Virus record (IMG/VR): IMGVR_UViG_3300020460_000013
Coordinates: 37,322-101,321 of that record
Source of the DNA: a virus
Lineage: Duplodnaviria; Caudoviricetes
Strand: one strand, 5' to 3'
DNA length: 64,000 bases
Part shown: piece after piece, positions 4,837 through 37,993 of the stretch
Position numbering within the stretch: the first letter of the stretch is position 1
Layout of the letters: every line of letters begins with the position of its first letter
Translations under genes and position numbers: made by a program
Notes under the pieces: model-generated
Database searches by the model: none
The model's input: only the letters and a program-made list of their open reading frames with translations
What the model was told of the DNA's origin: nothing

Positions 4837-4869
4837 ATTATTATTTCCTCTCTCATTAATTATACATAT

Positions 4870-4898
4870 ATTATACACTGATTCGTTTTGTATGTCAA
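4870..4898 (-). promoter_or_regulatory. sigma70 early promoter with GANTC motif in the spacer
   Basis: TTGACA-17-TATAAT; CGAATCA at 4879-4885. Confidence 0.85.
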
Positions 4899-5203: not shown

Positions 5204-5628
5204 TACGCAGCCTCCATAACTTCATAAGATTTATCCCACTTACCAACTTCGATATGCATATAGTATGCAGTATCAAAATAATCTGTCATGGCATCTGAAT
5301 TATCATACCATGCTTTCCCACCATTTAAAGCAGGAGCAACTTTCATAATTCTATAAACTTTATCTAAGATTTTTGCGTTTTCTATTCCATAGAAATCTGT
5401 TGTATAGAAATGATTGATCTGATGATGTTCACCATCATTTAAAGAACCAACTTTCATTTCGCCAGTATATTTATCTCTGTATTCCCAATCTTTAAAAGAA
5501 GGGCCTTTCATAAATGAAACAGTAACACTGTAAATACTATCTCGTCTTACAGAAAATTTATACTGTGGAAATTCTTTCTTTAAAGTATTTCGGATATGTT
5601 TAACATCATTAGTTGAAATATATGCCAT
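5203..5628 (-). CDS. LPD29-like polyvalent-protein domain protein
   Basis: IR..LKKEFP.YKFSVR and DNSDAMTDYFD motifs. Confidence 0.65.
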   Translation of the reverse strand: MAYISTNDVKHIRNTLKKEFPQYKFSVRRDSIYSVTVSFMKGPSFKDWEYRDKYTGEMKVGSLNDGEHHQINHFYTTDFYGIENAKILDKVYRIMKVAPALNGGKAWYDNSDAMTDYFDTAYYMHIEVGKWDKSYEVMEAA

Positions 5629-5654
5629 TCGTTTCTCTCTCTTTCTCTTGTTTA

Positions 5655-5889: not shown

Positions 5890-5915
5890 AATATATACTC
5901 TCTTTCTTTTGTTTA

Positions 5916-13186: not shown

Positions 13187-13203
13187 TTTTACCTCTCTGT
13201 TTA

Positions 13204-13942: not shown

Positions 13943-13997
13943 CGAATCACCTTTCTCTCTATACTATTAATATACCTGTTTTCATAACAAATGTCAA
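13943..13997 (-). promoter_or_regulatory. sigma70 early promoter with downstream TGATTCG
   Basis: TTGACA-17-TATATT; TGATTCG at 13949-13943. Confidence 0.75.
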
Positions 13998-27232: not shown

Positions 27233-27241
27233 TATTATTTT

Positions 27242-27427
27242 GTGTTGGTGGGACTTGGGTACACCCACAACTGAAGAACCAAGATACCATTCTTGCGTAA
27301 TCTCCAGAACCTAGTTCCAATCGGTGAGATTGATGTGACACAGCGTGCTTCCACTACCATGCCTGGATACCACTCCTAACTAGTCAAGTTCATATCTCTT
27401 GGTGAGATACTCTTCCTTGCACAACAC
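27242..27427 (-). ncRNA. ~186-nt structured RNA, manA-motif-like
   Basis: Terminal GTGTTG/CAACAC stem and internal hairpins. GTGCAAGGA and GTGGGT..CC.AGTCCCAC segments recall the manA RNA from memory; not searched. Confidence 0.55.
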
Positions 27428-27458
27428 GATTTTGGCCGTCGCCAAACTATGAAACTGG

Positions 27459-27815
27459 TAGTGGTGTTTCTGTTTCCAAGTACACCACTAAAACTCAGTA
27501 CGATTAAGCAGCTAGTGCATAATCTACAGGCGCAAAATTATCGTTTGCACTTATTTGTTTTGACCGATAACGAGGTCATGCGACAGTTCTACTCTCATAT
27601 CCATTTGTTAGTCGATCCTATTTCGCCCCCACAAAGACATACTAGCCGATTCTACCTCACAATCAGATGATGTTAACCCTTGTGTACACAGAGGTATGGT
27701 TACATATTACAGTTGGGCTCCCAAGTTCATATGTCATCATCTAGTATGTCTATGGTGGAGGCGATGGGTACTGCCCCCATGTCCTACCCAAATATCAATT
27801 CGTATCAACAAACTG
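27459..27815 (-). ncRNA. ssrA: Circularly permuted two-piece tmRNA, alphaproteobacterial type
   Basis: Acceptor piece ends CGCCTCCACCA at 27753. Coding piece starts GGGGGCGAAATAGGATCGAC at 27630. G3.U70 pair present. Tag ANDNFAPVDYALAA* at 27548-27504. Confidence 0.95.
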
Positions 27816-27820
27816 TACCT

Positions 27821-27851
27821 TATTTATATCATATAAAATTTTATAAGTCAA
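27821..27851 (-). promoter_or_regulatory. Composite sigma70/late promoter for tmRNA
   Basis: TTGACT-17-TATAAATA. Confidence 0.75.
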
Positions 27852-28200
27852 TACCTTTTTTATTTAAATCTGTATTCATATTGATTCTTCCCTTACCAGA
27901 TCCTAATACACACGCAAACTTATTGTCTTTAGTAAACTCTAAAAGAGTCCAAGTAAGTGTTTTTGTATTCATGGCCAGAACAAATCTAGTATTAAGAAAT
28001 ATACCCTCTACTGCCATAGAACGTCCATCCATCCAAATAAAAGGATCTTCACCAGATGATTTTAGACTTTCTATAACAACATCTGCATTACCACATTGAG
28101 CTGGTTTCATTACCCAACCAGTATTAGGACTTTTTGTCTGTGCGTTTATACTAAAGGTACTGAGCAACAGAAATGTTGTTATCAGAAATATTTTTTTCAT
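27841..28200 (-). CDS. Hypothetical exported protein
   Basis: Signal peptide; Cys pair. Confidence 0.7.
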   Translation of the reverse strand: MKKIFLITTFLLLSTFSINAQTKSPNTGWVMKPAQCGNADVVIESLKSSGEDPFIWMDGRSMAVEGIFLNTRFVLAMNTKTLTWTLLEFTKDNKFACVLGSGKGRINMNTDLNKKGIDL

Positions 28201-31802: not shown

Positions 31803-31822
31803 AACTCTCTCCTTTTTAATTA

Positions 31823-32408: not shown

Positions 32409-32438
32409 AATAATCTCTCTCTTGTTAACTATACCTAT

Positions 32439-32469: not shown

Positions 32470-32649
32470 AAAAAAAGAGGGAACAAAAGTTCCCTCTTGA
32501 AGCCTCGTTAAATGTCACCAAGTTTCGGCCACCCACTCTTGGTGCAGTAACTTCTGTAAGAGTATTGAGTCCTTGAGTTTACCAGACTTGTAACTCACTC
32601 TGTTACTTTCGTCATGTCATTGGTTTTAATCTCCCTCTTTATTAACTAT
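32470..32649 (-). ncRNA. ~180-nt structured transcript with RBS and AUG-ACA-UGA minigene
   Basis: Promoter TTGACA(32684)-17-TATACT with CGAATCA; nested stems; terminator AAGAGGGAAC-TTTT-GTTCCCTCTTTTTTT; no substantial ORF. Confidence 0.65.
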
Positions 32650-32701
32650 ACTTACAGTATATACTGATTCGTTTAGTTTGTCAACACTTTTTGTTATCAA
32701 A

Positions 32702-32791
32702 ACAAAAAACCCTCAGAAGAGGGTTTTCGCTTGTCGTGGGTTATTAGATTTTAGAGAGTGAGAGAGAGAGGACTAACAATCCCACGACACA
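32702..32791 (-). ncRNA. ~90-nt sRNA with a CU-rich (anti-SD-like) loop
   Basis: TTGACA(32826)-17-TAGTCT; 16-bp stem; loop TCCTCTCTCTCTCACTCTCTAAAAT; terminator AAAACCCTC-TTCT-GAGGGTTTTTT. Confidence 0.75.
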
Positions 32792-32832
32792 TGGATTAGA
32801 CTATCATATCATAATATAAATGTCAATAGTTT

Positions 32833-33288
32833 TTAATCCATTAACTCAAAATGTGGCCCATCAATAAATGGCCTTCTACCTTGTGAACGTCTTAAATCAA
32901 TATATGCGTTCATAGCATCTTCCATTGTACCATCCCAATCTCGCATATCATTAATGTGCCATGCAGCTCCCCAACGCACTTGTACACCTTCTTGAATAGC
33001 TGCTTCTTTCATTGCATCTGCAAGATCATCATAAAGGTTCAATTCCCATGATCCCCTTGAACCAACATAGGCCATGAGGTCAACTGCTTTACCCTCTAAA
33101 TGTTTACTCTTCATTGTTTGACTTGCGCCTTTCGCTACAAGCTCTTTTTGTTGTGCTTCGGTTCTTAAACCTTGAATCACGCCAAAGTCAGTTTTTGTCA
33201 ATCCTATGGCAGTTTTGACAACTCTTTGCATACGCTCATCAACACCCTCTAGTTTATCTAGTGATCTTTGTGATAATTTAAATGCCAT
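32833..33288 (-). CDS. Endolysin, M15 L-Ala-D-Glu peptidase
   Basis: GLRT..QQ, SKHL.G.AVD and DGPHFEL motifs. Confidence 0.9.
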   Translation of the reverse strand: MAFKLSQRSLDKLEGVDERMQRVVKTAIGLTKTDFGVIQGLRTEAQQKELVAKGASQTMKSKHLEGKAVDLMAYVGSRGSWELNLYDDLADAMKEAAIQEGVQVRWGAAWHINDMRDWDGTMEDAMNAYIDLRRSQGRRPFIDGPHFELMD

Positions 33289-35790: not shown

Positions 35791-35814
35791 TAATAATACC
35801 TTTCTCTCTGTTTA

Positions 35815-36976: not shown

Positions 36977-37993
36977 TTAATTTGGATTTGGTGCATCTAT
37001 GCCAGGAAGATACTTAGACATTCCTAATAGTTCACCTACAGTAAACTTTCCATCAAATGGATCTAGTTCACCATCATTTATTTGTTTCGTAATTTTTATT
37101 GCAATATCAGCAACATCTTTAGGCATATTTGTCATTGGAGCCATTTCTACCATTCCAGTATCCATACCACCCCAAGTGTCTGAAGATTCCCAAGTACCAT
37201 CTAATGCAGCCTGTATTCTCTTAATGTAATAAGGGCCCCATTGATCTATGATTGAAGTTAATTGTGTATTTGGTGCAAAACTAATCATATCTGACGCTTG
37301 ACCGAAACCTTTTATACCTAACTCTTCTGCAACTGATAATGGTGCAGTTGAGTCTGTATGTTGTGTAATAATATCAGCACCTTGATTAATCAATGCTTTA
37401 GCTGCATCTGCTTCTTTTGCTGGATCATACCAAGTATTAACCCATACAACATCTATGTCAAAATCTGGATTTACAGAAGTCGCACCTAAGTAAAACGCAT
37501 TGATACCACGAATAACTTCTGGAATTGGAAATGATGCAATATACCCTGCTTTTCCTTCTTTACTCATATGTCCAGCGATAACACCTTGAACATATCTACC
37601 CTCATAGAACTTAGAAGAATATACTGACATATTGTCAGCAGTTTTATATCCAGTTGCGTGTTCAAACTTTACATTTGGAAATTTCTTTGCAACATTTAAC
37701 ATTTGTTCCATGTAACCAAATGATGTCGCAAATATAATGTCAACACCATTCATAGCCATTTGTGTCATAACTCTTTCTGCGTCAGGCCCATACTTGACAC
37801 TTTCAACATAAGTTGTTGTTATATCATCACCAAAATGTTCTTCGGCCATTATTCTTCCTTGATCATGCATATAAGTCCAACCATGATCTCCAACTGGCCC
37901 AACATATACAAATCCAACTTGTATTTTGTCTGCGTATGCAGAAGAAACACTTAATGATAATAGTAGTACTGATAGAATTTTAAACAGTTTCAT
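36977..37993 (-). CDS. BMP-family ABC substrate-binding protein (nucleoside/purine-binding type)
   Basis: GF.YVGPVGDHGW, TSFGY, PIPEVIRGINAF and QHTDS motifs. Confidence 0.9.
   Translation of the reverse strand: MKLFKILSVLLLSLSVSSAYADKIQVGFVYVGPVGDHGWTYMHDQGRIMAEEHFGDDITTTYVESVKYGPDAERVMTQMAMNGVDIIFATSFGYMEQMLNVAKKFPNVKFEHATGYKTADNMSVYSSKFYEGRYVQGVIAGHMSKEGKAGYIASFPIPEVIRGINAFYLGATSVNPDFDIDVVWVNTWYDPAKEADAAKALINQGADIITQHTDSTAPLSVAEELGIKGFGQASDMISFAPNTQLTSIIDQWGPYYIKRIQAALDGTWESSDTWGGMDTGMVEMAPMTNMPKDVADIAIKITKQINDGELDPFDGKFTVGELLGMSKYLPGIDAPNPN

Follow-up and report, generated by a model that had tools for sequence, protein, structure and literature searches.

The closest described counterparts of the RNA reported here are the C/U-rich bacterial sRNAs directed against Shine-Dalgarno (SD) sequences: AbcR1/2 and the cuckoo RNAs of Alphaproteobacteria, Yfr1 of cyanobacteria, RsaE/RoxS, and 6C of Actinobacteria. 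They are short stand-alone transcripts with a pyrimidine-rich unpaired loop on a stable hairpin, complementary to purine-rich ribosome-binding sites (RBSs), and one seed can reach many targets; 6C binds several mRNAs via C-rich loops (PMC6486639). The predicted phage transcript has the same layout, and its single seed could likewise reach many targets. However, it has no sequence or structure match in Rfam, originates from a lytic T4-like phage, uses a long (CU)n repeat as its seed instead of a CCUCCC- or UCCC-type motif, and consists of a single hairpin from +1 that is fused to a tRNA in many relatives. The c4 RNA of phages P1 and P7 (Rfam C4) is a phage small RNA that masks the RBS region of its own mRNA and is matured by RNase P; as part of a temperate phage's immunity, it controls in cis the operon that encodes it, via specific a'/b' sequences. 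The tRNA-linked members of our family would also be matured by RNase P, but the RNA would have many dispersed leaders of a lytic phage as its targets in trans, and it does not match Rfam C4. The stable RNAs C and D of T4 (species 1 and 2) are small non-coding RNAs of unknown function that are co-transcribed with, and processed from, tRNA precursors. In a similar arrangement, 27 of 57 members of the CU-loop family immediately precede a gene of the tRNA-Gly(UCC) type; the T4 RNAs are nevertheless larger, and the copy studied here has its own terminator and no tRNA, a distinction drawn on size and arrangement. With regard to outcome, the nearest counterparts are two T4 products: RegB, which cleaves the GGAG of early SDs, and RegA, a competitor of ribosomes on ~30 mRNAs (PMC3014915). 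The result proposed for the RNA is the same, a post-transcriptional shut-off of early genes via their translation-initiation regions, but RegB and RegA are proteins.

The window, by which we mean the whole stretch of 64,000 nucleotides that was analysed (IMG/VR record IMGVR_UViG_3300020460_000013), carries the sRNA unit at 32826-32695 on the minus strand, as are all neighbouring genes (Table 1). The unit reads TTGACA-N17-(TGn)TAGTCT; after this come a hairpin of 16 bp, whose loop is a CU repeat of 25 nt, and an intrinsic terminator. The -10 box agrees with the consensus at 3 of 6 positions and was for that reason not listed by a consensus scan; it is preceded by the TG of an extended -10 element and ends 8 nt ahead of the first paired base. 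As stated in a preliminary description of this DNA, the promoter is devoid of GANTC, and the 16 bp given there for the stem correspond to 9 + 7 bp with a one-base bulge (GUCGUGGG.UUGUUAG). Within the loop, a single A separates two CU runs, where the usual spacer of the family is (A/G)A(C/A). Folding of 32695-32800(-) gave -35.1 kcal/mol, compared with -16.0 +/- 2.7 kcal/mol for shuffled sequences (z = -7.2; none of 200 shuffles was as good). ARAGORN found no tRNA at the locus. Upstream lie genes for RNase H, a DUF6433 protein and an M15-family peptidase, and the hairpin starts 44 nt after the peptidase stop codon at 32833. A permissive hairpin scan of the whole contig returned noise; the stricter scan used for copy number found one copy per genome, both in the window contig and in the cultured phage Melnitz. 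A gene for ribosomal protein S21 is located 2.4 kb from the sRNA, and the tmRNA of the phage bears an alphaproteobacterial signature.

Table 1. Positions of the sRNA elements, of the adjacent gene and of the candidate target leaders (window coordinates unless an accession is given).
Feature	Position	Strand	Remarks
-35 box TTGACA	32826-32821	(-)	sequence reading; followed by 17-nt spacer
Extended -10 (TG 32806-32805, A, TAGTCT 32803-32798)	32806-32798	(-)	sequence reading
Hairpin	32732-32789	(-)	5' arm 32789-32773, bulged A 32780, 3' arm 32747-32732
CU-repeat loop UCCUCUCUCUCUCACUCUCUAAAAU, 25 nt	32772-32748	(-)	proposed seed; unpaired in MFE and centroid structures
Intrinsic terminator	32728-32705 + U tract (to 32695)	(-)	10-bp stem, 4-nt loop
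M15-family peptidase gene (upstream, context only)	32833-33288	(-)	Pfam Peptidase_M15_4, E = 1.2e-5
AG tract AAGAGAGAGA, leader of gene 32408	32414-32423	(-)	9-nt perfect loop match; duplex -15.1 kcal/mol; candidate target
AAGAGAAAGAGAGAGAAA, leader of gene 5628	5632-5649	(-)	best predicted duplex, -20.2 kcal/mol; candidate target
GAGAGAGGAAA, leader of gene 4836	4844-4854	(-)	duplex -16.6 kcal/mol; candidate target
AGAGAGAAAGG, leader of gene 35790	35799-35809	(-)	duplex -13.7 kcal/mol; candidate target
AGAGAGAAAGG, leader of gene 13940	13950-13960	(-)	duplex -13.8 kcal/mol; candidate target
AGAGAGG, leader of gene 13186	13192-13198	(-)	candidate target
AAAAAGGAGAGAG, leader of gene 31802	31805-31817	(-)	candidate target
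AAAAGAAAGAGAG, leader of gene 5889	5898-5910	(-)	candidate target
sRNA copy of phage Melnitz	MZ577095.1 37294-37380

Megablast against phage records returned nothing, and a distant-mode search of the same records identified Melnitz, HTVC008M and cyanophages as the kin of the window phage. The M15 peptidase gene proved unsuitable as an anchor for finding relatives: it is widespread in unrelated phages, 76 of the 80 loci that it retrieved were not syntenic, and the element was common only to near-identical contigs among them. Relatives were found by re-anchoring on the DUF6433 gene. The loop pattern occurs at 74 places in IMG/VR, 63 of which have a stem of at least 9 bp, and 62 of these 63 hairpins are preceded by a sigma70-type promoter (TTGAC[AT]-N16-18-TAnnnT). 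The distance from the end of the -10 box to the stem is 5-8 nt in 60 of the 62; the -10 box of the window copy is weaker than those of its relatives. As a control, 596 Gb of prokaryote genomes yielded 115 matches to the loop pattern, two with such a stem and none with the promoter. In family members the stem measures 12-17 bp, its 5' arm being rich in G, and the loop of 23-30 nt is made of CU repeats; the window copy conforms. The stems change freely across the family, whereas the CU-repeat core is kept and the loop is nearly invariant; the number of CU units drifts by 1-3 among near-identical contigs. Downstream sequence was sufficient in 57 relatives: a T-run terminator lies 3' of the hairpin in 25 of them and a tRNA or tRNA-like element in 27. 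ARAGORN identifies the tRNA as tRNA-Gly(UCC), which ruled out tRNA-Trp (anticodon CCA).

The genomic site is conserved as well. It lies downstream of rnh-DUF6433 at the edge of an early-gene block, and in the relatives L089-L134 the hairpins are found 0.5-1.4 kb after the DUF6433 homologue. The window copy fits this pattern and is placed as in L093, a detected member of the family, after the DUF6433 and M15 genes. Most relatives have no M15 peptidase gene beside the RNA, and there a consensus promoter is found 5-8 nt upstream of the stem. In two groups (L116-121 and L130-134) the hairpin directly follows a stop codon and has no promoter. The Melnitz copy is annotated in GenBank as a CDS for a hypothetical protein; in HTVC008M no copy was found.

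MAFFT followed by RNAalifold gave no consensus structure for the hairpins because the arms were mis-registered. We therefore seeded a covariance model with five sequences of equal length and re-aligned the others to it. In the resulting alignment of 31 distinct sequences, 97.3% of the stem cells are paired, compared with 72.6% in shuffles (none of 500 reached the observed value) and 37-58% when the alignment was slid. Double changes occur in 14 of the 15 stem pairs. Read on the gene-sense strand, the stems contain many G.U pairs, which on the opposite strand would be A.C mismatches; this favours an RNA of the sense strand. A model built from the 31 sequences, with the window type excluded (R2), matches 32733-32788(-) with 27.5 bits (E = 1.4e-4), its only significant match in the window; a narrower model (R1) gave no match in the window at E<=1. 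Rfam 15, whose families considered here included AbcR/ar15, cuckoo-type, Yfr1, C4, 6C and RsaE among others, gave no match at the locus at gathering thresholds. Permissive searches returned only generic hairpin and terminator look-alikes, which scored 14-24 bits where the thresholds lie at 43-55. On this comparative evidence we conclude that the window RNA is a real small-RNA gene, of a family common to many related ocean T4-like phages. Indeed, the self-contained promoter-hairpin-terminator unit of the preliminary description is borne out by an architecture that recurs in dozens of divergent phage contigs, where the stems covary and the CU loop is conserved. The family is uncatalogued, and the group that carries it is that of the marine T4-like myophages (pelagimyophage/Melnitz).

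The leader matches listed in the preliminary description are all present: GAGAGAGGA (gene 4836), AGAGAGAGA (5628 and 32408), AGAGAGU (5889 and 31802), AGAGAGG (13186) and AGAGAGA (13940 and 35790). The predicted loop-leader duplexes cover the SD region. Several genes that are not early pair with the loop equally well, among them 23751 and 35225 (-18.7 and -19.2 kcal/mol), whose matches had also been reported. The early leaders repeat a single promoter/leader cassette (GATTCGTAAACAGAGAG...) and are not independent, so that the enrichment found among them rests on pseudo-replicates: 6 of the 10 promoter-proximal genes have a perfect loop match of at least 7 nt, compared with 16 of the 112 remaining genes (Fisher p = 0.002), and the real loop pairs with early leaders of the window at -12.8 kcal/mol per leader, compared with -8.0 kcal/mol for shuffled loops matched in composition (2 of 300 shuffles as good). 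For the other genes of the window, real and shuffled loops are alike (-7.2 and -7.0 kcal/mol; 112 of 300 as good). The same test gave -10.9 compared with -8.8 kcal/mol for the early leaders of Melnitz (9 of 300 as good), while for its other genes 262 of 300 shuffles equalled the real loop. HTVC008M, which is without the RNA, shows no early-leader signal in this test. The enrichment in early leaders that the preliminary description had anticipated is thus seen in two genomes, and a loop complementarity specifically enriched in the promoter-proximal early leaders of the window and Melnitz is supported.

The pairing could have another origin. Presumably these AG tracts are also complementary to a 16S 3' end of the CCUCCUUUCU type (the rRNA sequence being assumed here), and since tracts such as AGAGAGG and AGAAAGG would make good extended SDs for such a 16S, the complementarity to the CU loop could be a by-product. 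Leaders with AG runs make up 19% both in contigs with the sRNA and in related contigs in which no copy was found, the latter being incomplete fragments. Cognate specificity was not observed: leaders of the window and of Melnitz pair equally with either loop, the two loops being too similar for a strong test. The reading of the element as an sRNA directed against the RBSs of early genes, put forward in the preliminary description, is supported in part, for the sRNA unit and for the early-leader complementarity; the covariation of loop and leader among relatives to which it had also looked did not appear.

These data are consistent with a model in which the sRNA, ~90 nt long, would have a sigma70-type early promoter to itself, with transcription initiating at ~32790 and stopping at the terminator near 32700. 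The hairpin would begin at the first nucleotides of the transcript and display the CU-repeat loop of 23-30 nt. In about half of the relatives a terminator would end the RNA after the hairpin; in others the hairpin would run into tRNA-Gly(UCC), from which RNase P would release the sRNA. The open CU loop would pair with AG-repeat SD regions and block ribosome binding, and the best candidate targets are the promoter-proximal early mRNAs of the phage itself. Since the sRNA and its proposed targets share one promoter type (sigma70, early), the circuit would be a delayed negative feedback and not a separately timed off-switch. A genuine sRNA gene whose CU loop masks early AG-rich SDs as delayed feedback is the best explanation that we can offer from the sequences, and we put it forward tentatively.

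A base-pairing sRNA could instead be aimed at host mRNAs during takeover, the match to phage early leaders being incidental to their nature as strong purine-rich RBSs. A CU loop pairs with any AG-rich SD, as the non-early genes 23751 and 35225 illustrate, no cognate loop/leader covariation was found, and the loop is almost invariant although early genes differ among phages, which fits a conserved host target. We nevertheless consider this unlikely: the shuffled-loop tests single out promoter-proximal phage leaders in two genomes, and the family occurs in phages of different host classes (OM43 for Melnitz, and an alphaproteobacterial tmRNA signature here). A role of the loop as a decoy for a protein (Rho, ribosomal protein S1 or a phage factor), or as a mimic of the anti-SD tail of 16S rRNA, also seems improbable to us. 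Rho primary sites bind YC dinucleotides, and Rho and S1 prefer pyrimidine-rich RNA. The conserved part of our RNA, a (CU)n repeat of drifting copy number, suits multivalent YC recognition as well as pairing, a long unpaired loop on a 5' hairpin is how baits are typically built, and the S21 gene 2.4 kb away speaks for an investment in the control of translation initiation. However, a tract of 25 nt is short for a Rho hexamer, a protein partner is not identifiable from the sequence, and the complementarity specific to early leaders would be left unexplained. Nor do S21 and the sRNA strictly co-occur, as S21 is present in HTVC008M too (PMC9004378), a phage without the RNA.

The hairpin might instead be purely structural, a 5' leader or stability element such as a cap-like hairpin for a tRNA or an insulator of transcription units, whose loop has no role in trans. 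Its start at the predicted +1 and the tRNA-Gly(UCC) or tRNA-like sequence directly after it in 27 of 57 relatives agree with such a function. We rate it as very improbable in view of the window copy and 25 of 57 relatives, where a terminator follows and the transcript has no other content, and because it does not account for a near-invariant loop on a freely changing stem. We reject the notion that the element is not a separate gene but the 3' UTR or terminator of the M15-peptidase mRNA, or a DNA element (an H-DNA (CT)n tract or an origin). The 44 nt that separate hairpin and peptidase stop, the weak -10 box of the window copy and the promoterless hairpins right after a stop codon in the L116 and L130 groups would accord with it. 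Most relatives, however, have the RNA without the peptidase and with a consensus promoter 5-8 nt upstream, and the G.U pairs favour an RNA of the sense strand.

If the preferred reading, masking of early SDs by the CU loop, is taken further, one trans-acting RNA would be the counterpart of RegB/RegA in abundant ocean T4-like phages, with a shut-off that needs no protein factor. All promoter-proximal early genes would have their (AG)n leaders titrated by the loop, and the sRNA would in many lineages be freed from a tRNA-Gly precursor by RNase P. We regard this extension, which is built on sequence comparison, as doubtful. RegA (PF01818) is present in G001, a close relative, and in Melnitz and HTVC008M, and is absent from the window contig, which is 63% complete. 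Since those three genomes encode RegA, the RNA would add to RegA and not replace it. For RegB (PF10715) there was no match in the four genomes, in a search that also gave no match in any control genome.

The regulatory sRNAs of strictly lytic phages are barely known, and to our knowledge none has been described for viruses of the pelagimyophage/Melnitz type, which the literature ranks with the most abundant viruses that infect heterotrophs of the ocean. Because one carrier of the RNA, Melnitz, is in culture with its host (OM43 strain H5P1), the hypothesis is directly testable. If the loop masks early RBSs, these phages would achieve with an RNA what T4 does with the proteins RegB and RegA, and it would become apparent how viruses of streamlined hosts schedule gene expression with a minimal set of promoters and regulators. 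Should the RNA act on something else, an uncatalogued family tied to a tRNA-Gly precursor would still merit an entry in RNA databases and in phage annotation.

The minus-strand element of the window is a genuine small-RNA gene of the phage, conserved and belonging to no catalogued family. As proposed in the preliminary description, it is a self-contained unit of promoter, hairpin, open loop and terminator, all read on the minus strand; one point alone needs correcting, the weakness of its −10 hexamer, which is absent from the list of our consensus promoter scan. The lack of a GANTC motif, which sets this promoter apart from the early promoters of the window, was likewise borne out. The RNA folds with −35.1 kcal/mol compared with −16.0 ± 2.7 for shuffled sequences (z = −7.2). 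No ORF of at least 30 codons spans the element on the minus strand, and the RNA has no match in Rfam. Transcription would run from about 32790 to about 32700. Every gene around the element is also on the minus strand.

Features of the small-RNA element and its gene neighbourhood
Feature	Position	Strand	Remarks
Ribosomal protein S21	35482-35237	-	Pfam E = 3.6e-13; first in transcription order, 2.4 kb upstream of small RNA
Two small ORFs	between S21 and RNase H genes	-	from gene order
T4-type RNase H	34611-33745	-	
DUF6433	33743-33291	-	
M15-family peptidase	33288-32833	-	stop codon 32835-32833, immediately precedes small-RNA element
-35 box TTGACA	32826-32821	-	read from sequence; 17-nt spacer to -10
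-10 box TAGTCT	32803-32798	-	TG-A in front (extended -10 element)
Hairpin, 9 + 7 bp, one bulged A	32789-32773 pairs with 32747-32732	-	starts eight bases past -10
Open loop, 25 nt, UCCUCUCUCUCUCACUCUCUAAAAU	inside hairpin	-	
Terminator hairpin (10-bp, GC-rich) and U tract	32728-32695	-	
Run of small early genes	downstream of small-RNA element	-	

The source contig is an IMG/VR virus of 101 kb (estimated completeness 63%), and the G+C content of the window is 32-35%. At the DNA level it is closest, among named phages, to Methylophilales phage Melnitz (72% identical across rnh and neighbouring genes), to Pelagibacter phage HTVC008M and to T4-like cyanophages. Two structured RNAs lie side by side at 27238-27855 (-) of the window: a permuted, two-piece tmRNA of the alpha type (116.7 bits; tag ANDNFAPVDYALAA) and, directly downstream of it, a manA RNA (64.1 bits). 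In Melnitz, a two-piece tmRNA under glutamine riboswitch control has been reported (PMC9004378).

Loci anchored on the peptidase came mostly from unrelated phages; those anchored on the DUF6433 protein were syntenic and were used to find the family. A strong hairpin with a pyrimidine-rich loop lies 0.5-1.4 kb downstream of the DUF6433 gene in 39 of the first 46 such loci. The loop is nearly constant (consensus ACCUCUCUCUC-(A/G)A(C/A)-UYUCUCUCUC) and the stems differ widely, with 5' arms such as TTGGTGAGGAGCAACTT, TAATGGTGGTGGGGAA, AATGGATGGGGATTC and CATGGTGGGGG. Upstream there is a consensus promoter close to the hairpin (e.g. TTGACT-N17-TATTAT), and downstream either a terminator or a tRNA gene 4-6 nt after the hairpin, a tRNA-Gly(UCC) in many relatives (L099-L110, L170-L232 regions). 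Searching IMG/VR with the exact loop pattern TCTCTCTCRAMTYTCTCTC retrieved 76 contigs, from which 74 matches were analysed. A stem of at least 9 bp is present in 63/74, TTGAC[AT]-N16-18-TAnnnT occurs within 60 nt in 62 of these 63, and the distance from the end of the −10 box to the first paired base is 5-8 nt in 60 of the 62 promoter-bearing members. Among the 57 members with at least 80 nt of downstream sequence, the hairpin is followed by an ARAGORN-called tRNA-Gly(UCC) in 16, by a T-run terminator in 25, and in 11 by a tRNA-like sequence that has the same UUCCAA anticodon loop and is not called by ARAGORN. These eleven (L102/L109/L110 type) have a mismatched acceptor stem and an odd T loop.

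A control search of prokaryote genomes with the same pattern, covering 185,579 species with one genome each (596 Gb), gave 115 matches scattered over unrelated taxa. A stem of at least 9 bp is present in two of them and a promoter in none; the element thus belongs to phages and is no product of low sequence complexity. Two hairpins with a AACUCUCUCUCUCAACUCUCUCUCA-type loop were seen in Planctomycetota MAGs (L275 2851-2897, R2 E = 8.5e-6; L290 6578-6623, E = 1.1e-3), both lacking a sigma70-type promoter; they either arose by convergence or belong to viral DNA sorted into these MAGs.

Five Melnitz-type sequences served as seed of the first covariance model, which found every pattern-defined member, each on the CU strand. 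When 31 distinct sequences of other clades were aligned to it, standard pairs filled 97.3% of cells compared with 72.6% when the 3' partners were shuffled, and 14 of 15 stem pairs showed changes on both sides (101 cells); none of 500 shuffles reached the observed values, with the caveat that the alignment is fitted to the model. Sliding the partner by 1-3 columns lowered pairing to 37-58%. G.U pairs are common on the CU strand of the stems and would be A.C mismatches on the opposite strand, which argues that the structure is selected in RNA of the gene sense. A second model (R2), built from the 31 sequences and run over the 64 kb with filters off, gave one significant match, at 32733-32788(-) (27.5 bits, E = 1.4e-4). 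The window copy is therefore a divergent family member: its stem differs, and between its CU runs stands a single A where the family usually has three bases. Copies nearly identical to it (L089-L092) vary mainly in how many CU units flank this A on each side. Repeat-number drift is present elsewhere in the family too. Among contigs that are otherwise near-identical (L089/L090/L092; L197/L203/L219), (CU)n varies, for instance, by 1-3 units, or the interrupting A is moved by one repeat; this slippage is microsatellite-like, and the RNA evidently tolerates it. Similar hairpins without a promoter, right after a stop codon, form two marginal groups, L130-134 (E about 0.01) and L116-121, which has a U-richer loop and was not detected.

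The family is represented just once in Melnitz, at MZ577095.1 37294-37348, where the hairpin has both a promoter and a terminator. This locus (L244 1440-1575, MZ577095.1 about 37250-37385) overlaps CDS Melnitz1EXVC043M_65, a 59-aa 'hypothetical protein' that is probably a mis-annotation. Neither an sRNA nor a hairpin is mentioned in the publication on Melnitz (PMC9004378), and searches of open-access full texts turned up no link between pelagiphages and sRNAs. In HTVC008M, no copy was found by loop pattern, hairpin scan or covariance model.

The preliminary description held that the loop is antisense to the AG-rich ribosome-binding sites of early genes, and each leader motif it quoted was found at its gene. 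A codon model trained on the contig itself called 123 genes; among these we defined early genes by a sigma70-type promoter within 120 nt and sought matches within 25 nt upstream of the start. A perfect loop match of at least 7 nt precedes 6/10 promoter-proximal genes compared with 16/112 others (Fisher p = 0.002). We then compared the real loop with 300 shuffles that kept its composition (energies in kcal/mol per leader). On this contig the early leaders gave −12.8 against −8.0 (2/300 shuffles as good) and the 114 other genes −7.2 against −7.0 (112/300); with its own loop, Melnitz gave −10.9 against −8.8 (9/300) and −7.5 against −8.0 (262/300) respectively. Complementarity is thus enriched specifically in the early leaders of two genomes, although on this contig these leaders repeat a single promoter/leader cassette (TATAGT-GATTCGTAAACA-GAGAG...) and are hence not independent observations. 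HTVC008M, which is without the small RNA, has short promoter-proximal leaders that are not AG-repetitive, and the family consensus loop gave −4.3 against −4.6 (186/300). Alternating AG runs of at least 6 occur in 0/15 of its leaders, 8/13 on this contig and 4/25 in Melnitz. Across distinct promoter-proximal leaders of the retrieved loci, such runs are as frequent in RNA-bearing contigs (30/161, 19%) as in related contigs without a detected copy (8/43, 19%), the latter being fragments that may carry the RNA elsewhere. The predicted duplexes span the SD region, the best being that of the gene at 5628 (−20.2 kcal/mol). If the host 16S rRNA ends in CCUCCUUUCU, tracts such as AGAGAGG and AGAAAGG would also serve well as extended Shine-Dalgarno sequences, and a CU loop would necessarily match them; pairing of the early leaders is somewhat stronger with the loop (−11.4) than with this assumed anti-SD 15-mer (−8.7). 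Covariation of loop and leader in relatives, to which the preliminary description had looked, gave no signal, since own and Melnitz leaders pair equally with either loop.

The early promoters, at 4898, 5689, 5950, 8450, 13238, 31857, 32467, 32684 and 35849 (-), have CGAATC in the spacer or GATTCG (a GANTC site) right after the −10 box. Several share the complete cassette TATAGT-GATTCGTAAACA-(AG)n. This arrangement recalls T4-type phages, in which early promoter cassettes are repeated. In the next transcription unit, 32475-32684 (-), the early promoter matches the consensus and contains CGAATC in its spacer, and the SD (AAAGAGGGAG) is strong. The only ORFs have 2 codons (ATG ACA TGA) and 6 codons (ATG ACG AAA GTA ACA GAG TGA); some 110 nt lie between them and a terminator. 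If the TGA is read through, the next stop is a TAA immediately ahead of the terminator; relative L092 has TGG in place of that TGA, yet its frame stops earlier. The unit represents either a micro-gene, recoded or decaying, or another non-coding RNA.

We tentatively favour base-pairing of the small RNA with the phage's own early leaders. The loop would pair with SD regions and block initiation; in tRNA-linked relatives, RNase P would release the hairpin RNA. Such anti-SD action on the early regulon is plausible, statistically hinted at and unproven. The same pairing directed at host mRNAs is unlikely in our estimate. So is a protein decoy or mimic of the 16S tail, which would fit the preference of Rho and S1 for pyrimidine-rich single strands, the nearby S21 gene, and the drift in CU-repeat number, which suits multivalent binding. 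That the hairpin merely serves as a leader or stability element for the tRNA is very unlikely; terminator-ended members and the fixed loop count against it. Least probable is a 3'UTR or DNA-level element, a reading that both the G.U pairs and the conservation of promoter spacing oppose.

Pairing with early leaders would resemble the action of bacterial anti-SD sRNAs with C/U-rich loops (AbcR, cuckoo RNAs, Yfr1, RsaE, 6C), although the phage RNA falls outside every catalogued family. Its closest analogue among phage RNAs is c4 of P1/P7, likewise encoded by a phage, which RNase P matures and which covers a ribosome-binding region; c4, however, acts in cis within a temperate immunity operon. The tRNA linkage of family members recalls the stable RNAs C and D of T4, whose role is still obscure. 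T4 RegB and RegA offer a functional parallel, RegB cutting the GGAG of early SDs (PMC3014915). RegA is encoded in G001 (a near-complete relative), Melnitz and HTVC008M; RegB was not found in these three genomes by a search that had no positive control.

S21 has been reported in HTVC008M (PMC9004378), which is without the small RNA, so the two do not strictly co-occur. The small RNA and its proposed targets have promoters of one class; the circuit would thus work as feedback that depends on accumulation, not as a switch with timing of its own. S21 exerts its effect at the SD/anti-SD step, so that the phage may have two means of adjusting translation initiation, S21 and the small RNA.
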